Made by a program: the position numbers and the translations under genes. Source: Escherichia phage UP30. Taken from it: a stretch of DNA of 49,834 nt. The stretch is from the sequence record OX638287. The stretch is one strand, 5' to 3'. This document shows, one piece after another, positions 13,347 through 30,959 of this stretch (position 1 is its first letter; each line of letters opens with the position of its first letter). The notes below the pieces were generated by a model. The model saw only the letters and a list, made by a program, of their open reading frames with translations, searched no databases and was not told the origin of the DNA.

Positions 13347-14459
13347 ATGAAGGCAAAGCAAAGATTCGATTCGGTAAAAATCAAGGCGCATTTTGATGAT
13401 AATGGTTTTTTGGTTGACCGTCCCATCGTAGCGCGAATCGGTGCTCAGGTTTACAAAACGCCACACGGAGATCGCGTTGAGTTTCGTCCTGCGTCCGAAG
13501 TGTTCAAACAAGACTCATTGCAAAGTTTTGCAGGCAAGCCGATTACAGTCGGGCACGTAACGGTGACGCCAAAAAATGCTAAGGATGTTGTTGTCGGATC
13601 GTGTGCTGGTGCTGGTATTGCTTCAGGGGTTGGTGTTGAAGTTCCTTTGAGTATTTACAGTGAATACGCGATCGGTAAGGCAAAAGCGAAGGAGGCCGGG
13701 GAATTGTCAGTTGGCTACACGTCAGTTGATATTGATAAACCTGGTTGGGGTTCAAACGAAACTGGAGAATATATCTTCGAAGAGGATATGAAACAGGATG
13801 AAGCGCCGCCTGAAGGATGGGTGAAGTTCGACGCGGTACAGACCAATATTAAGGTCAATCATATCGCCCTGGTCTTCAAAGGTCGTGCGGGAATTGCTAA
13901 ATTAAACCTTGATGCCGAACAGGAATTTCCGTATGATAATAACGTTCAATCAACCAACGAGGACAAGCAAATGAAAAAAATTAAGATCGATTCAGTTGAT
14001 GTGGAAGTAACCGAAGACGTTGCGAACCATATCGAAAAGTTAACCGCACAGATCGCTACCATTCAGGGCAAAGCTGATGGTTTCGAAGCAGAACGCGACG
14101 CGCTCAAGGTCAAGGTTGACTCTCTACCGGAACTGGTAAAAGCAGAAGTGGAGAAGCAGAAAGCTGACGCAGCCGCACGCGCAGAAGTCACGGCAGTAGC
14201 AGAAACCGCAGGCGTTAAGCATGACGGCCTTGAAATCAAAGACGTTAAGGTGGCGGTTGTGAAAGCAATGCTGAACAAAGACGTTAGCGAAAAATCTGAT
14301 GCATACATCGACGCCATGTTTGATGTTGCTAAGGATTCTGATATTATGGCTATTCAGCGTAAAGCGGTAAAAGGCGACTCTATCGAAGACGGCAAGCCGG
14401 AAGAGAAAAACGACGCCGCGCCTGTTACGCCAAATTCACGTTTAAGTAAAGTAATGTAA
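13347..14459 (+). CDS. putative prohead protease / scaffold protein (370 aa)
   Basis: Position between head morphogenesis gene and capsid-region genes; Lys/Glu/Ala-rich coiled-coil-like C-terminus. Confidence 0.45.
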   Translation: MKAKQRFDSVKIKAHFDDNGFLVDRPIVARIGAQVYKTPHGDRVEFRPASEVFKQDSLQSFAGKPITVGHVTVTPKNAKDVVVGSCAGAGIASGVGVEVPLSIYSEYAIGKAKAKEAGELSVGYTSVDIDKPGWGSNETGEYIFEEDMKQDEAPPEGWVKFDAVQTNIKVNHIALVFKGRAGIAKLNLDAEQEFPYDNNVQSTNEDKQMKKIKIDSVDVEVTEDVANHIEKLTAQIATIQGKADGFEAERDALKVKVDSLPELVKAEVEKQKADAAARAEVTAVAETAGVKHDGLEIKDVKVAVVKAMLNKDVSEKSDAYIDAMFDVAKDSDIMAIQRKAVKGDSIEDGKPEEKNDAAPVTPNSRLSKVM

Positions 14460-14470
14460 GGAGAAAAATT

Positions 14471-14947
14471 ATGGCACAGATTAACGCATCTTATCAGCGC
14501 GACATGGCGATCGCCCTTCCGGGTATGGTTGCTGACACTTCCAAATACAACATCGACGGCGCTTGTGTCGTTAACGAAGGTGATGTTTTTGTTGGTGCTG
14601 CTGTTCAGGTTGTCCAAGCTCAGGCTGTTGATGGTCATAAACTGGTTAAGGCTATGGAAGCGTCTAAAGTACCGTACGGCGTAGCGATTCGTTCTCACTG
14701 GCAGACTGTCAACGCTCAAAACCAGATGGTTTATGAAGAAGGTGGCGCAATCAACGTAATGACCTCCGGGCGAGTCTGGATGCTTTCAAAATCAGAAGAA
14801 GCACCAACTTTCGGAACTGCTGTTAAGTTAGATGTTGATGGTCAGGAAAAATCTGATGGCACGATCGAAACTACCTGGACTTACGCTGGCGGCTGGACTA
14901 AATACAAAGACATTCAGCTTGTAGAAGTTCAGTTGCATCAACTGTAA
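14471..14947 (+). CDS. head protein, paralog A (158 aa), possible decoration protein
   Basis: Shares TSxYNIDGACV...PYGxAxRS...GRxWxL...EAP block with the next gene. Confidence 0.5.
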   Translation: MAQINASYQRDMAIALPGMVADTSKYNIDGACVVNEGDVFVGAAVQVVQAQAVDGHKLVKAMEASKVPYGVAIRSHWQTVNAQNQMVYEEGGAINVMTSGRVWMLSKSEEAPTFGTAVKLDVDGQEKSDGTIETTWTYAGGWTKYKDIQLVEVQLHQL

Positions 14948-15007
14948 TTAGCGTTTAATATGGGGACTATCCTTTTTGGATGGTCCTTTTTTTATGGAGA
15001 AATAATT

Positions 15008-15772
15008 ATGGCTTACGAAAATTTAATGTTGCGCCCGGCGTGTCCTGGAAATCTTTCCGATACTTCAACCTACAATATTGATGGTGCTTGCGTTGCGCAG
15101 GGTGATATTGAGTTCGGCTCGGCGGTACAGGTTATCGGGATCGTTGATGGTGTTAAAGTCGTTACGGCGCTTACTGATGGTGGAACTCCTTACGGTATAG
15201 CTTTCCGTTCCCAATATGAACACCTGAGCGGTAAAATCTTAGACGGCGAAGTGTGCAACGTAGTTTCTTACGGTCGAATGTGGACGCTTACTTCTCTTGA
15301 TGAGGCTCCCGGCTTATTCTCAAAGTTGCAATTTGGATCTGGTGGCGTTGTTACTGGTGGATCTGGTTCCGTAGGTTGGACCTTCGCGGGTGGATTTGTT
15401 AAGCATGAAGACGGCTACATCATTGAGGTTCAGGTGAAACAAAATGCTTTCATCGTCCCACCGCCGCCTCCAGTTGTTCTTGTTGAATCAGCTACGATCA
15501 CTACCGACAAGGAAAGTCCTCAGCCTAACAACGTTACGATTCAGTGCGTAGCTAATGTTCTTCCTGTGAACGCTGATGATAAAACTGGCAAGTGGTCAAT
15601 TGACGCCACCAACATTGCTACTGTGGATCCGGACTCAGGTTTGGTTACTCCTGTAGGTGGAGAAGTCGTCGGTAACTTCAATATCACATGGACGGCTAAC
15701 GACGCCAGCAAGACGAAGGCAACTATTGCCTATCGCGTAGAAGCGGCTCCAACTCCAGAAGGTGAGTCATAA
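15008..15772 (+). CDS. head protein, paralog B with C-terminal Ig-like (Big_2-type) domain
   Basis: N-terminal paralogy to 14471-14947; PPPPP linker then Ig-like domain; ATG 15008 after GGAGAAATAATT. Confidence 0.5.
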   Translation: MAYENLMLRPACPGNLSDTSTYNIDGACVAQGDIEFGSAVQVIGIVDGVKVVTALTDGGTPYGIAFRSQYEHLSGKILDGEVCNVVSYGRMWTLTSLDEAPGLFSKLQFGSGGVVTGGSGSVGWTFAGGFVKHEDGYIIEVQVKQNAFIVPPPPPVVLVESATITTDKESPQPNNVTIQCVANVLPVNADDKTGKWSIDATNIATVDPDSGLVTPVGGEVVGNFNITWTANDASKTKATIAYRVEAAPTPEGES

Positions 15773-15784
15773 CACAAAAATGCT

Positions 15785-15812
15785 TTGACGCTTTAACAAA
15801 AAGTGCTATTAT
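15785..15812 (+). promoter_or_regulatory. strong sigma70-type promoter of capsid gene (TTGACG-16-TGcTATTAT) with inverted box in spacer
   Basis: -35 15785-15790, -10 15807-15812; box ttaacaaaaagtgctatta 15793-15811. Confidence 0.55.
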
Positions 15813-25766: not shown

Positions 25767-28700
25767 ATGATTCAAAAAGTGATAAGCGGATCTAAGGGCG
25801 GCTCGTCTAAGCCTCATAATCCAGTTGAAATGGAAGATAACCTGATCTCAATTAACAAGATCAAGATCCTGTTAGCTATATCTGACGGCGAGATTGACGA
25901 AACATTCAGCCTCAAGCAACTGATGTTTAACTCGGTCCCGGTGCAAAACGAGGATGGATCATTCAACTTCGAAGGGGTAAAGGCAGAGTTCAGGCCGGGC
26001 ACGCAGACTCAGGAATACATCAAAGGCATGGAAGATAGCGCCAGTGAGGTAACTGTAAACCGTGAGGTTACGACCGATAATCCGTACACGATCGCAGTAA
26101 CCAATAAAACTCTGTCGGCAATCCGTATAAAAATGTTCATGCCTCGCGGAGTACGCATTGAAAACAATGGCGATAAAAACGGCGTTAGAGTTGAGTACGA
26201 AGTGCAGCAAGCGGTTGATGGGGGTTCGTTTGAGACGGTGCTCACTGACGTAATCGAAGGCAAAACAATGTCAGGTTACGACAGAAGTCGTCGCGTAAAC
26301 CTGCCGAACTTCAATAATCAGGTGATATTCAGAGTCGTTCGCAAAACTCCAGACTCTAACGATTCGAACGTTGTCGATGCAATCCAGGTGAGAAGCTATG
26401 CCGAGGTAATTGATGCCAAATTCCGTTACCCTCTGACTGGTCTTCTTTTTGTTGAGTTTGATTCGAAGATGTTCCCGAGCCAGTTACCTACGATCTCAAT
26501 TCGTAAGCGATGGAAGATTGTAAACGTTCCGTCTAACTATGATCCAGAATCACGAACCTATAACGGGAATTGGGATGGAACTTTTAAGAAGGCGTGGACG
26601 AATAACCCTGCCTGGGTGCTTTATGACCTGATGATTAATCAGCGCTATGGACTGGATCAGAAAGAGCTTGGAATCTCCGTAGATAAATGGGCGCTATATG
26701 AGGCCGCGCAATATTGCGATCAGATGGTCCCTGACGGGAAAGGCGGTACTGAGCCTCGGTATCTTTGCGACGTGATAATCCAGTCACAGACTGATGCTTA
26801 CAAAGTTATTCGAGATATTTGCTCAATCTTCCGTGGCATGAGTTTTTGGAATGGTGAGAGCATTTCTGTAATCATCGACAGACCGCGTGAGCCTGCGTAC
26901 ATCTTCACGAACGACAACGTTGTTAATGGTGACTTCTCCTATACTTTCGCAAGCGAAAAGAGTATGTACACGACGTGTAACGTGATGTTTGATGACGAAC
27001 AAAACATGTATCAACAGGATGTTGAGCCAGTATTCGATCGTGAGGCGACTCTACGGTTCGGTAACAACGTAACGAGCATTACAGCGATCGGATGCACTCG
27101 ACGCAGTGAGGCTAACCGTCGCGGTAGGTGGATTCTGAAAACCAACCTACGCAGCACCACGGTAAACTTCGCTACCGGGCTGGAGGGAATGATTCCGACC
27201 ATCGGGGATGTTGTAGCAATAGCTGACAACTTCTGGTCAAGTAACTTGACTATGAACCTATCAGGGCGATTGCTCGAAGTGTCTGGAAGTCAGATTTTCT
27301 TGCCGTTCCGTGTGGATGCTCGCGCAGGTGACTTTATTATCGTAAATAAGCCTGATGGCAAGCCCGTGAAGCGCACAATCTCAAGTGTTAGTGCGGATGG
27401 AAAGACCATAGAGATTAACATCGGCTTCGGCTTTCCTGTGAAGCCTAACACGGTGTTTGCAATTGACCGTACCGACCTTGCGTTACAGCAGTACGTCGTG
27501 ACTAAAATCGACAAGGGTGATGACGATGAGGAATTTACCTACAAAATCACTGCGGTCGAGTACGATCCTAACAAGTACGATGAGATTGATTATGGCGTGA
27601 ACATCGATGATAGACCTACAAGCATCGTTGAGCCTGACCAGATACCTAAACCGGAAAACGTGCAGGTGTCCTCAGAGTCGAGAATCGTCCAGGGGATGAG
27701 CGTAGAAACGATGATTGTTAGCTGGGATAAAGTGCCGTACGCAGTTTTCTATGACGTCCAGTGGCGAAAGGATAACGGCAACTGGCAGAACGTTCCGCAG
27801 ACGGCAAACAAAGAGGTTTACGTTGAAGGGATTTACGCTGGTAACTATCAGGTTCGCGTTCGATCTGTGGCTGGCTCCGGTACGACTTCAGGTTGGTCAA
27901 ATATCGTAGCGGCGACGTTGACAGGTAAGCAAGGTGAACCGGGTCGACCGATTAACCTTACGGCTACGGATGATGTTGTTTTTGGTATCCGTACAAAATG
28001 GGGGTTCTCTGAAGGTTCAGGCGATACTGCCTATACAGAGTTGCAACAGTCACCGGATGGAACGGTTGACAATGCAAGTTTACTCTCTCTGGTTCCGTAT
28101 CCGCAGCATGAGTATTATCACTCACCAATGCCGGGCGGGAATATCGTGTGGTATCGGGTAAGGACGGTTGACAGGATCGGTAACGTGTCGCAGTGGACTG
28201 ATTTTGTCAGAGGCATGGCATCAACGAACGTAGACGATATTATCGGTGATATTTCTGTTGATATCGAAAACTCGCCAGGTTACGAATGGCTTGTTGATAA
28301 TGCAACCGACAACGCAGCGCAGAACGCAGCGAACGCTGAAGCATCAATTGAAAACGCACTCGCTAACGATAGAGACGCGATCCACATGAAGAAGGAGAAC
28401 GGTAAACGAAAAGCCGAGTACACCAAATCTCTTAAACTGATTGCTGACGAGACAGAGGCGCGCGTGACGGCTGTTGAGCAATTGAAAGCTAGTTTTGGAG
28501 ATCAGATTAGCGCGAGCAATAGCGAATTGCGTGAGGTTATCGCAACTGAGACAGGTGCGCTATCTCGCGAGATTGACCAACTCAAGGCAGAGATTGGTGA
28601 TGATATTCAGGCAAGTTTGACCGATATCCGTGAAGCCATCGCGAACGAGACTGAGGCAAGAACGCAAGCTGACTTAACGTTAAGCGCGCGACTTGGGGAT

Positions 28701-29216
28701 AATGAGGCGGCACTTTCTCAAAAACTTGACTCGTGGAGTAACGCGGATTCGACTGGCGCAATGTACGGCGTCAAGCTGGGACTTAAGTATAATGGTCAGG
28801 AATACAGCGCAGGCATGGCTATGTCTCTGATTGGTTCTGGCGCGGTTGTTAAGGCTCAGATTCTTTTTGAGGCGTCACGATTTGCCATCATGACAGGAAT
28901 GAATGGTCAGACTCAGTATCCTTTCGTGGTTGAGAATGGTCAAGTTATCCTGAGTAGCGCAATCATCAAGGATGGATTTATTACTAACGCAATGATTGGT
29001 AACGCAATTCAGTCTAACAATTGGGATGGATATCAAGGGTGGCATATTAACAAGAATGGTGCAGCTTACTTTATGAACGCAACAGTAAGGGGTGCTTTGT
29101 ATGCAGATAACGGATCGTTTGCATTCAACGGAACAAACAACACGGTTCAGATAAACAATAACGGGATCACGGTTAACCTACCTAACGGGGGCCGAGTGGT
29201 TGTTGGTGTCTGGTAA
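25767..29216 (+). CDS. host specificity / central tail fibre protein (lambda gpJ-like, 1149 aa)
   Basis: Size and position after I; fibronectin-III-like region; heptad-repeat-rich C-terminal part. Confidence 0.85.
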   Translation: MIQKVISGSKGGSSKPHNPVEMEDNLISINKIKILLAISDGEIDETFSLKQLMFNSVPVQNEDGSFNFEGVKAEFRPGTQTQEYIKGMEDSASEVTVNREVTTDNPYTIAVTNKTLSAIRIKMFMPRGVRIENNGDKNGVRVEYEVQQAVDGGSFETVLTDVIEGKTMSGYDRSRRVNLPNFNNQVIFRVVRKTPDSNDSNVVDAIQVRSYAEVIDAKFRYPLTGLLFVEFDSKMFPSQLPTISIRKRWKIVNVPSNYDPESRTYNGNWDGTFKKAWTNNPAWVLYDLMINQRYGLDQKELGISVDKWALYEAAQYCDQMVPDGKGGTEPRYLCDVIIQSQTDAYKVIRDICSIFRGMSFWNGESISVIIDRPREPAYIFTNDNVVNGDFSYTFASEKSMYTTCNVMFDDEQNMYQQDVEPVFDREATLRFGNNVTSITAIGCTRRSEANRRGRWILKTNLRSTTVNFATGLEGMIPTIGDVVAIADNFWSSNLTMNLSGRLLEVSGSQIFLPFRVDARAGDFIIVNKPDGKPVKRTISSVSADGKTIEINIGFGFPVKPNTVFAIDRTDLALQQYVVTKIDKGDDDEEFTYKITAVEYDPNKYDEIDYGVNIDDRPTSIVEPDQIPKPENVQVSSESRIVQGMSVETMIVSWDKVPYAVFYDVQWRKDNGNWQNVPQTANKEVYVEGIYAGNYQVRVRSVAGSGTTSGWSNIVAATLTGKQGEPGRPINLTATDDVVFGIRTKWGFSEGSGDTAYTELQQSPDGTVDNASLLSLVPYPQHEYYHSPMPGGNIVWYRVRTVDRIGNVSQWTDFVRGMASTNVDDIIGDISVDIENSPGYEWLVDNATDNAAQNAANAEASIENALANDRDAIHMKKENGKRKAEYTKSLKLIADETEARVTAVEQLKASFGDQISASNSELREVIATETGALSREIDQLKAEIGDDIQASLTDIREAIANETEARTQADLTLSARLGDNEAALSQKLDSWSNADSTGAMYGVKLGLKYNGQEYSAGMAMSLIGSGAVVKAQILFEASRFAIMTGMNGQTQYPFVVENGQVILSSAIIKDGFITNAMIGNAIQSNNWDGYQGWHINKNGAAYFMNATVRGALYADNGSFAFNGTNNTVQINNNGITVNLPNGGRVVVGVW

Positions 29217-29220
29217 CAGA

Positions 29221-29246
29221 AAGGGGCCGATTGGCCCCTTTTTTTA
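29221..29246. terminator. bidirectional terminator between convergent J and cor operon
   Basis: ggggcc-gatt-ggcccc then T7. Confidence 0.7.
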
Positions 29247-30200
29247 ATACATGTTTGGAGTGAAAGGAATTGGCATTGAAATGTTTATGTTGAATGGGAA
29301 TTGAGCGCCGCTCTGAGTAGAATAGTTACCTACCCTCGTTCCTGGTGCGCTTCTAACGTTACCTCCGCTCATGCACACGCCCTTGTATCGGATGTTATTA
29401 TATCCACCTGTAACCCTGCATATTGTGCCAGTTCTCAGTATTGGGAAAAATCCACCGCACCACTGCCAGCCGTCATTTATCGCCATAGTCCCGCCGAGAA
29501 CGAAGGGGCGTCTAACGCTTGAGAAAACGATCTGACCAGCGGGATTGCTCATAGTAATTCCCGGTCCTGGAGGTGGTGGAGTGTTATTAAATATTACGAG
29601 TTGCACGTATACGCTCGCGCCAACGTCATCAATCCCGTTATAGTTTGCATCCCTACACCATATAGTATTTCCGTCAGATTCAAGTGTTACGTTTGGGTTA
29701 TCCCACATACCGAAAGGAACGCCCTGGACTGGCAATTGAGCCTGACCGTTAACCTGGATGCCTCCAACAAATGCGGCACTCATCAACCTTGCGTTATTCG
29801 GTATCGCTGCGAAGTTGGTTGAATCGTTGACAAGTATCCCCTGATTTCCTGCCTGAGCGGGGAGAATTTCGTAACAGTTGCCATAAAATCTCATCCTTCT
29901 TCCACCGTGACCGTTAAAATTCCCTACCGTTATTCGCCCGGTTGAATCATTAACCTTCTGAAAGCTGGTTAAATAATACACCTCAGGAATATAATCCATG
30001 TCGTCTATGTAGATGGACTGAGATGGAAGGCAAAAAGCAGTAGATCCAGGACTCATTTGCAGACCAAAATCAAAAACCGATCCCGATGAGTCAACGCCGT
30101 CCGCTTGTATTGGTCCGCACCATGACGGTGCGCGAAGCCCCGAGGTTATCTCCATTGCCGGACGACCGTCATTTAAGTTTATGTATATTCCTTGTCCCAT
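29244..30200 (-). CDS. hypothetical Gly/Asn-rich protein (about 318 aa), co-operonic with Cor-like lipoprotein
   Basis: ATG 30200 lies 2 nt after upstream stop (coupling); ends at bidirectional terminator. Confidence 0.55.
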   Translation of the reverse strand: MGQGIYINLNDGRPAMEITSGLRAPSWCGPIQADGVDSSGSVFDFGLQMSPGSTAFCLPSQSIYIDDMDYIPEVYYLTSFQKVNDSTGRITVGNFNGHGGRRMRFYGNCYEILPAQAGNQGILVNDSTNFAAIPNNARLMSAAFVGGIQVNGQAQLPVQGVPFGMWDNPNVTLESDGNTIWCRDANYNGIDDVGASVYVQLVIFNNTPPPPGPGITMSNPAGQIVFSSVRRPFVLGGTMAINDGWQWCGGFFPILRTGTICRVTGGYNNIRYKGVCMSGGNVRSAPGTRVGNYSTQSGAQFPFNINISMPIPFTPNMY

Positions 30201-30202
30201 AA

Positions 30203-30433
30203 TTACCACTCTTTAGTTTTGATTGACACCTTGCCGCTAAAGTTTCCCTGGTCGTCGTCTGATGACAGACCTTTGAATCGCATGTCGATTTCTCCAGCGG
30301 GAACATTCTGCCCGTCAACGAATCGCATCATGCAAGAACCGTACGCGTAAGTAACACAGTCGCCATTTTTAAGATTCTGAGCGCAACCAGTCAGGATGAA
30401 TGCAGAAGCGATAATGGTGATTAATTTTTTCAT
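30203..30433 (-). CDS. Cor-like lipoprotein (putative superinfection exclusion)
   Basis: 76 aa, signal peptide with lipobox LTGC, GAGGAC RBS, own sigma70-like promoter; name is from T1/phi80 context, not verified. Confidence 0.5.
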   Translation of the reverse strand: MKKLITIIASAFILTGCAQNLKNGDCVTYAYGSCMMRFVDGQNVPAGEIDMRFKGLSSDDDQGNFSGKVSIKTKEW

Positions 30434-30462
30434 TTGTATGTCCTCGTCGTTAGTGTGATTGC

Positions 30463-30491
30463 ATTGTATGTCGCATTTACTTTTATTGCAA
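30463..30491 (-). promoter_or_regulatory. sigma70-type promoter of cor operon (TTGCAA-17-TACAAT)
   Basis: -35 30486-30491, -10 30463-30468 on minus strand. Confidence 0.5.
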
Positions 30492-30511
30492 TAGCTCGAT
30501 TACAATTTTTT

Positions 30512-30695
30512 CGTGTAACAGGTGTCTATTTTTGTAACCGGAATAGGTGTTACAAAATCGACCCCATCCGACCGCAGGGAGATATGATAAAAACTCTATA
30601 TAATATATATAGATAGATAATATTTAATTTTAGCTTTATATATATAATTATTGTTGTGTAACAGTTGTCTATCGTGTAACAGGTGATTTGATTGA
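30512..30695. repeat. direct repeats cgtgtaacaggtg (x2) and gtgtaacagNtgtctat (x2) flanking an AT-rich block
   Basis: 13-mer at 30512-30524 and 30673-30685; TGTAAC/GTTACA 7 times in 30514-30854. Confidence 0.6.
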
Positions 30696-30900
30696 TTCGT
30701 CAAATTTCTATCATATATGTTCAAAATTTAATCAATAGGGATTCCATTTATGGATATCTATGTATTTCTAAGAAAAAGCGGTTACAAGTGTTACGCAATA
30801 GACAGCACACAAAAACTGACTCAAGTTATTGATTCAGTTGATGCTGGTTGTAACTTGAGCAATATAGACACGCAATTACACACCAATTACATGTATTCGA

Positions 30901-30928
30901 TTGACTAAATGCTGTTAATGGCTATAAT
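30901..30928 (+). promoter_or_regulatory. canonical sigma70 promoter of recombination module (TTGACT-16-TATAAT)
   Basis: -35 30901-30906, -10 30923-30928, AAGGAG 30945-30950. Confidence 0.6.
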
Positions 30929-30959
30929 GGATTCATCGTAAACGAAGGAGATAAACGCA

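Follow-up and report, generated by a model that had tools for sequence, protein, structure and literature searches.

The window, i.e., the whole 49,834-nt stretch of Escherichia phage UP30 DNA analyzed here (sequence record OX638287), contains two adjacent genes on the minus strand that converge on a J-like gene on the plus strand. The J-like gene (25767-29216) encodes a central tail-tip protein of 1149 aa, the last ~70 residues of which (about 29004-29216) are specific to the cassette type described below. The gene next to it encodes a 318-aa protein of the DUF6453 family (29244-30200; ATG at 30200, TAA at 29246-29244), which is predicted to be a receptor-binding protein that binds the extracellular face of LptD/LptE, and the second minus-strand gene encodes a 76-aa lipoprotein (30203-30433; ATG at 30433, TAA at 30205-30203). 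An earlier note made from the sequence alone had described these two ORFs as running opposite to the tail genes with a stop at 30203 followed by an ATG at 30200, and the ORF scan and the sequence confirmed this layout, in which 2 bases (tt) lie between the lipoprotein stop codon and the ATG of the 318-aa gene. In the mechanical ORF list, the 318-aa frame runs out to a GTG at 30209; we assign the start to the ATG at 30200, because every homologue begins at its equivalent, with M1 and G4 invariant. Compared with SH6 and Sfin-1, both ORFs have dN/dS ratios of 0.003-0.036 at dS values of 0.4-0.5, and these ratios indicate that both are real genes. Exceptionally strong purifying selection on the 318-aa gene (dN/dS 0.003-0.015) was considered and rejected, as neighboring genes behave alike (J, 0.019; exonuclease, 0.018; Erf, 0.004).

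In the 20 lytic-phage loci examined, the lipoprotein gene lies directly upstream of the gene for the 318-aa homologue on the same strand, with one irregular locus (L019), and the two are separated by a 2-nt gap or overlap by 1 nt in each of the 18 loci in which an upstream ORF for the lipoprotein was identified. Based on this spacing and its conservation, the two genes are probably co-transcribed and translationally coupled. Such a transcript would combine an exclusion factor required early with a virion protein required late, a point that counts against the explanation favored below. The convergent stop codons of J and the 318-aa gene are separated by 27 nt, a gap that is filled by a hairpin at 29219-29242 with the structure GGGGCC-loop-GGCCCC, bordered by A- and T-runs on opposite sides, which give a U-run on each strand. 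It folds with -19.8 kcal/mol on the plus strand and -17.9 kcal/mol on the minus strand (z scores of -3.0 and -4.0, respectively, compared with shuffled sequences), so that the bidirectional terminator proposed earlier for the end of J is borne out, as an intrinsic one, by folding on both strands. A consensus terminator scan missed this hairpin, probably because the A/T runs are absorbed into the stem. Terminators are annotated at the equivalent place in the SA32RD record. Scans of the window for tRNAs, Rfam families and tandem repeats gave nothing relevant.

Upstream of the lipoprotein gene, a GAGGA ribosome-binding site is located at 30445-30441 on the minus strand, 7 nt before the ATG. A consensus scan identified a candidate sigma-70 promoter, TTGCAA-17-TACAAT, at 30463-30491 on the minus strand that matches 9 of 12 positions and is identical in SH6, Sfin-1 and T1. 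Sigma-70-like matches were no commoner in this region than in shuffled sequences (six found versus 5.4 expected), and for this reason we treat the element as a conserved candidate only. Thus, the proposal that the operon has its own host-type promoter stands as far as conservation and a weak consensus match make this element a plausible one, but the scan itself lends no excess of matches to it. The SA32RD annotation has a different promoter candidate further upstream, at about 30499-30528.

The region, together with 24 kb around it, has about 90-94% nucleotide identity to the Tunavirus group of Shfl1, SH6, ISF002 and Sfin-1. The gene order is that of SH6 and Rtp, i.e., J on the plus strand and the 318-aa gene and the lipoprotein gene on the minus strand, followed by genes for exonuclease VIII, Erf, SSB and the lateral tail fibre. 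The recorded hosts of the Shfl1-type clade are mostly Shigella.

The 318-aa protein has the Gly/Asn-rich composition already described for it (G 13.2%, N 8.8%, P 7.5% and S 7.2%), including the PPPPGPG stretch (as NNTPPPPGPG), and the reported lack of a signal peptide holds as well; there is also no membrane segment, the maximal Kyte-Doolittle mean over 19 residues being 0.99. RefSeq and PHROG label the protein as "membrane protein / moron"; the "membrane protein" label can be discarded, as there is no hydrophobic segment. In Pfam, the protein is a full-length member of PF20051/DUF6453 (E value of 2.9e-126, profile positions 1-291 of 291). Its sole significant relative of solved structure is chain C of PDB entries 9RPT, 9RPW and 9RQI (9rpt_C, E value of 1.7e-66, residues 1-318), the sequence of which, as rebuilt from the alignment, is 100% identical to bas18_0025 of phage Oekolampad. 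The Oekolampad protein is a receptor-binding protein and was observed by cryo-EM inserted in the extracellular side of open-state LptD/LptE (Dunbar et al. 2025, PMC12685063) in complexes made with Shigella flexneri LptDE. The 318-aa protein matches the three-dimensional fold of this protein and is 42% identical to it over residues 1-318. Its homology to LptD-targeting receptor-binding proteins extends over the full length: it is 40% identical to Rtp44, 40% identical to the VogelGryff counterpart and 67.5% identical, at 100% coverage, to the Msk counterpart, Msk being near-identical to OzMSK. Published work reported that lptD mutants are resistant to VogelGryff, AugustePiccard and others (PMC8594841) as well as to OzMSK (PMC13035648). 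The protein also passes the rule for the LptD family given in a 2026 preprint, which uses >30% identity at near-full coverage (bioRxiv 10.64898/2026.04.02.716166). The SH6 protein, from which the 318-aa protein differs at about 5 residues, was already modelled by Black et al. as a predicted binder of LptD (PMC13035648); we found no published receptor test for SH6, Sfin-1, Shfl1 or another Tunavirus of the Shfl1 clade in the literature.

The best-conserved stretch of the DUF6453 family is the N-terminal ~25 residues, which were modelled with low confidence, and the cryo-EM map shows poor order in the tail-proximal part of the Oekolampad receptor-binding protein (PMC12685063). Conserved positions generally lie in the N-terminus and the core rather than in the distal loops, in agreement with Black et al., who placed the conserved residues at the base of the protein and not in the receptor-contacting loops (PMC13035648). 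In a comparison of a single contact residue, Gln299 of the Oekolampad protein aligned with Gln296 of the 318-aa protein. Judged by its family and fold, the 318-aa protein is most likely the terminal receptor-binding protein of the phage, with LptD as the most likely receptor; both LptD/LptE binding and the location at the tail tip are predicted by homology. The earlier note had listed the protein as unknown and suggested a homology and fold comparison with receptor-binding proteins, which returned the solved Oekolampad protein as a full-length homologue. Among the three roles offered for the protein at the time, a receptor-binding accessory comes nearest, except that the homologue is the receptor binder itself, and a second exclusion factor is very unlikely given the homology to a solved receptor-binding protein. 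Because of the full-length homology to the Oekolampad protein, a structural component of the tail tip is now predicted, which is the outcome that the earlier note had set against its own proposal.

The lipoprotein begins with MKKLITIIASAFILTG-C17, in which residues 1-16 form the signal peptide and L-T-G-C17 the lipobox. Cys17 is lipidatable and is followed by Ala at position +2, i.e., there is no inner-membrane retention signal. In Pfam, the protein belongs to PF24052 ("Phage lipoprotein family"), with a score of 83.3 bits (cut-off, 27), and a PDB sequence search matched it to Rtp45 (9rps_D, E value of 4.3e-9). Identity is 66% to bas18_0026 of Oekolampad and 37% overall to Rtp45 (33% in the mature part). 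The identities of the two cassette proteins to their structurally solved counterparts, 42% for the Oekolampad receptor-binding protein and 37% for Rtp45, are thus moderate, and this weighs against the explanation favored below. C26 and C34 align with the disulfide-forming residues C30 and C38 of Rtp45 and are invariant in the alignment, as is the motif VPAGE-D-R. Rtp45 has been observed by cryo-EM bound to the periplasmic side of LptDE (PDB 9RPS), where it displaces extracellular loop 4 and in this way blocks the receptor-binding protein (PMC12685063). Based on the membership of the mature part in PF24052 and its relation to Rtp45 and the Oekolampad lipoprotein, the likely target is LptD and not FhuA.

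The similarity to T1 Cor, which underlies the earlier description of the protein as Cor-like, is confined to the N-terminus. BLASTP aligned the lipoprotein with T1 Cor over residues 1-19 only (16 of 19 identical, 84%), the match to PHROG 1119 (Cor; E value of 1.9e-5) covers residues 1-33 only, and the mature 59 residues gave no BLASTP alignment with T1 Cor. We therefore rejected a Cor homologue: the likeness ends at the lipobox, and the mature part is of the PF24052/Rtp45/Oekolampad type, so that the Cor-like label fits the first 19 residues and not the remainder. Homologues of the FhuA-type partner genes of T1, ST31 and ST32, are absent from the window, and the DUF6453 gene occupies that position. 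A Pfam scan at E values up to 1 returned PF24052, PF08139 (the generic lipid-attachment motif) and one chance match but no family of the T5 Llp type, and the matches of the lipoprotein in the PDB sequence search included no FhuA-Llp chain. Judged by homology, the 76-aa protein would be an outer-membrane lipoprotein for superinfection exclusion of the Rtp45/Oekolampad type.

Gene structures, family membership, the fold match, synteny, the cassette boundaries and the co-occurrence with a specific J tip are observed here. With LptD function assigned by homology, it is highly likely that the locus is both a receptor-specificity cassette of a T1-like (Tunavirus) siphophage and of the LptD type. According to this explanation, both genes would be transcribed together away from the conserved intergenic region, with transcription ending at the hairpin shared with J. 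The 318-aa protein would be a cytoplasmic product that lacks a signal peptide and would attach non-covalently to the C-terminal tip of J, likely via its N-terminal ~25 residues. At infection, its distal loops would enter the extracellular mouth of LptD/LptE and thereby commit the phage to DNA ejection, by homology to Oekolampad (9RPT). After export and lipidation at Cys17, the 76-aa protein would be delivered to the outer membrane and reside in its inner leaflet; bound to the periplasmic side of LptD, it would push extracellular loop 4 to where the receptor-binding protein cannot engage, by homology to Rtp45 (9RPS). As a result, infected cells and lysis debris would no longer adsorb this phage and other LptD-dependent phages.

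The alternative that fares best keeps this architecture and shifts the specificity to another outer-membrane protein or to another conformational state or site of LptD. Several observations are compatible with it: identity to the structurally characterized members is just 40-42%, the conserved positions are those of the N-terminus and core and not of the distal loops (PMC13035648), recorded hosts of the clade are mostly Shigella, and the two proteins have mixed lineages, an MSK-like receptor-binding protein being combined with an Oekolampad-like lipoprotein. However, all experimentally tested members, which cover a range of 33-96% identity, use LptD (PMC8594841, PMC12685063, PMC13035648, bioRxiv 10.64898/2026.04.02.716166), the closest of those tested being OzMSK/Msk at 67.5% identity. 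Moreover, the LptDE used in the cryo-EM work was that of Shigella flexneri, and the lipoprotein retains the family cysteines as well as VPAGE-D-R. We consider a shifted specificity unlikely.

In a second alternative, the 318-aa protein would be absent from the virion and would act on the host, as an accessory or second exclusion factor that works alongside the lipoprotein in the infected cell. The co-transcription and tight coupling with an exclusion lipoprotein could be read in this way, the category given to PHROG 1265 is "moron, auxiliary metabolic gene and host takeover", and a 2026 paper speculated about such a role for unrelated genes beside cor in FhuA-type phages (PMC13164509). Lacking a signal peptide and a membrane segment, however, the 318-aa protein would have no route to the envelope from inside the cell, and it occurs together with a particular tip sequence of J. 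The J protein of the window is ~97% identical at the amino acid level to T1 J up to codon ~1079 and then switches sequence; its tip, FAFNGTNNTVQINNNGITVNLPNGGRVVVGVW, is common to the J proteins of Rtp, Oekolampad and prophages, while T1 is without it. Thus, the 318-aa gene is located next to the 3' end of a J gene that has the matching C-terminal tip. Among related IMG/VR loci, a large J-like ORF ending in the tip motif was present directly beside the DUF6453 gene in 79 of 80, of which 68 were counted by a strict pattern and the remainder by eye. In 17 of these 80 loci, J and the DUF6453 gene are convergent, and in the other 63, they are co-directional with the DUF6453 gene right after J in prophage-like tail operons. 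When the co-directional prophage-like loci were searched at E<1e-3, no lipoprotein of the Rtp45 family turned up in the surrounding ~4 kb. In one of the 63 co-directional loci, a fibre-like gene and an integrase gene follow. The placement of the 318-aa homologue in a tail operon with no lipoprotein nearby argues against this alternative, and we regard a host-acting factor as very unlikely. Under the favored explanation, the 318-aa protein probably docks on the ~70 C-terminal residues of J, and we infer that it does so via its N-terminal ~25 residues.

Least probable of all is a true Cor protein directed against FhuA-dependent phages, like those of T1, phi80 and N15: the 84% identity to T1 Cor over the first 19 residues, the PHROG 1119 match and a genomic slot and upstream region like those of T1 cor speak for it, but the likeness stops at the lipobox with the mature 59 residues unaligned, this part has its matches in PF24052, Rtp45 and the Oekolampad lipoprotein instead, and the T1 partner genes ST31 and ST32 are absent.

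The comparison with T1 also defines the borders of the LptD-type cassette. Homology to T1 extends through J to 29003 (codon ~1079) and resumes at 30383, i.e., exactly at the Cys17 codon. The module exchanged relative to T1 therefore corresponds to 29004-30382 and comprises the end of J (~70 residues), the terminator hairpin, the gene for the receptor-binding protein and, of the lipoprotein, the mature part. The right-hand recombination boundary is formed by a conserved "socket" of 138 nt (30383-30520, minus strand) that contains the candidate promoter, the 5' untranslated region and the signal-peptide codons and is 92-97% identical in 60 Tunavirus records. The gene at this socket is annotated as Cor in T1, IME18, JMPW1, phi2013 and Sfin-3 and as lipoprotein in SH6 and Shfl1. 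One conserved promoter, 5' untranslated region and signal peptide may thus drive unrelated mature exclusion domains. The relationships of the two cassette genes are discordant: the 318-aa protein is closest to that of one related locus (L010; 76% identity) and to MSK-like proteins (67-69%), the partners of which are Rtp45-type lipoproteins, while the lipoprotein of the window is closest to that of Oekolampad, unlike its MSK-like receptor-binding protein. Tentatively, we suggest a two-level modularity, in which Tunavirus phages switch between FhuA and LptD via fixed sockets (J codon ~1079 and the lipobox Cys) and the receptor-binding protein and the lipoprotein reassort independently; this is a possibility to which we give somewhat less than even weight. 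In a bolder version, the mixed pairing may reflect a binding mode or target unlike that of the solved complexes.

As such, the cassette is already known: a locus for receptor-binding proteins downstream of gpJ was first described by Maffei et al. 2021, and the cassette represents its LptD-type allele, for which Dunbar et al. 2025 provided structures and the SH6 version of which was discussed by Black et al. 2025. Two features are not spelled out in the cited literature, namely the right-hand junction exactly at the lipobox cysteine and the discordant relationships of the two genes. These leave the current understanding unchanged and are unsurprising, but are useful for engineering and annotation. 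For annotation, the labels "hypothetical", "membrane protein", "moron" and "Cor" would be replaced by LptD-type receptor-binding protein and LptD-directed exclusion lipoprotein. The predicted receptor would be the essential and conserved LptD rather than FhuA, which bears on host-range prediction and phage-therapy design, and with LptD as the receptor, T1-resistant (fhuA) laboratory strains would be expected to be lysed nonetheless. The cassette boundaries at J codon ~1079 and at the lipobox Cys codon would provide natural cut points for receptor swaps among T1-like phages.

Among characterized phages, SH6 (gp49/gp50), Sfin-1, pSf-2 and Shfl1 have essentially the same cassette as the window, with amino acid identities of 98-99.7% for the receptor-binding protein and 96-97% for the lipoprotein, although nucleotide identity is only ~91-93%; the differences are almost all synonymous. 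The deposited annotations in this group are "hypothetical protein", "membrane protein" or "lipoprotein". In Rtp, synteny from J through SSB is identical, and Rtp45 belongs to the same Pfam family as the lipoprotein of the window, with the cysteines conserved; however, rtp44 and rtp45 overlap by 1 nt as opposed to the 2-nt gap here, and the lipoprotein is of a different subtype. Oekolampad (Bas18) has the pair bas18_0025/bas18_0026 in the same order and with the same spacing, converging on J, and its lipoprotein is the 66% identical one. It differs from the window in having a Dhillonvirus rather than a Tunavirus backbone and in having the lateral tail-fibre gene next after the core, and the receptor-binding proteins are moderately similar with different distal loops. 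Binding to LptDE has been shown for Oekolampad (PDB 9RPT, 9RPW and 9RQI; PMC12685063) and is predicted here.

T1, with Cor and ST31/ST32, and T5, with pb5 and Llp, follow the same logic as the cassette of the window, in which a receptor binder at the tail tip is combined with a lipoprotein that faces the periplasm and inactivates this very receptor, but both are unrelated to it in sequence. T1 shares with the window the genomic slot, the promoter region and the signal peptide, but its mature exclusion protein is unrelated and its receptor is FhuA. In the T1 slot, J, ST32 and ST31 are on the plus strand and are followed by cor on the minus strand, so that the partner genes are on the J strand, unlike here. 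In the case of T5, Llp acts by long-range allostery, whereas Rtp45, the solved relative of the lipoprotein described here, displaces loop 4 sterically (PMC12685063).

The predicted receptor-binding protein (the 318-aa DUF6453 product) and the exclusion lipoprotein of the window differ in their closest relatives. For this comparison, we considered the pairing of the two proteins in the window (29244-30433) and in the compared loci L002, L004 and L010 to L020. The receptor-binding protein is most similar to that of L010 (76% identity), followed by the MSK-like proteins (67-69%), and all of these come paired with lipoproteins of the Rtp45 type, i.e. of the type of the Rtp exclusion lipoprotein. 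These partner lipoproteins share 73-82% identity with Rtp45 and 32-36% with the lipoprotein of the window. The nearest relative of the window lipoprotein is that of Oekolampad (66-67%), the receptor-binding protein of which is just 42% identical to that of the window. These discordant relationships at the sequence level suggest that the genes for the receptor-binding protein and the lipoprotein reassort independently within the cassette.

One Tunavirus record (IMGVR_UViG_2974611450; 50,414 bp; locus L019) has an irregular cassette. Its match to the receptor-binding protein is limited to residues 5-318, with 68% identity in the best segment, and the start of this shortened match is overlapped by the lipoprotein ORF. 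Moreover, the J tip motif, i.e. the C-terminal sequence specific to the cassette type, is absent from the convergent neighbouring ORF, which has a length of only 404 aa. Either the locus is rearranged or its assembly is faulty.

DUF6453 homologues with about 45-47% identity are also present in prophage-like elements (among the IMG/VR loci L021-L084), where they are located directly after J and on the same strand. For example, in locus L048 (813-6107; contig of about 90 kb), J is followed by the DUF6453 homologue and then by a gene for a 389-aa fibre-like protein and an integrase gene. We found no Rtp45-family lipoprotein within about 4 kb of the DUF6453 gene in the prophage-like loci. Homologues are annotated on chromosomes of Citrobacter, Salmonella and E. 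coli as well. In public annotations, DUF6453 homologues are labelled "membrane protein" in RefSeq and "exonuclease" in one Klebsiella phage record, and PHROG 1265, which corresponds to the DUF6453 protein, is placed in the category "moron, auxiliary metabolic gene and host takeover"; the lipoprotein region is labelled "u-spanin" in one Tunavirus record. None of these labels agrees with the solved structure or with the sequence.

The intergenic region from which the lipoprotein and exonuclease VIII genes diverge (30434-30959) is very AT-rich (GC content, 24-36%) and includes a near-pure A/T run of ~45 nt at about 30598-30650. It contains three copies of the 22-nt repeat TTTTCGTGTAACAGGTGTCTAT, at 30508, 30651 and 30669, together with several inverted copies of TGTTACA/TGTAACA; within the window, exact copies of the 13-nt core are confined to this region. 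In an alignment of the window, SH6, Sfin-1 and T1, column identity is 96% in the intergenic region vs ~91% in the flanking genes. Overall, the region resembles a set of operators or tandem promoters, or else an origin-like element.

In the comparison with T1, which carries cor in the same slot, the overlap between blastn pieces inside J is 133 nt for the window (28526-28658) and only 33 nt for T1, implying that J of the window has an additional segment of approximately 100 nt (~33 aa). This segment maps to the repetitive portion of J that contains the ELREVIATETGALSREIDQLKAEIGDD repeats; Tandem Repeats Finder reported no repeat there at the DNA level. The edges of the receptor cassette (29004-30382; 14380-15800 in T1) are sharp: homology to T1 ends at approximately J codon 1079 and restarts exactly at the codon for the lipobox Cys17. 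Because homology resumes at the Cys17 codon, T1 cor and the LptD-type lipoprotein gene have a common candidate promoter, 5' UTR and signal peptide. This common segment of 138 nt is 92-97% identical across 60 Tunavirus records that include both cassette types.
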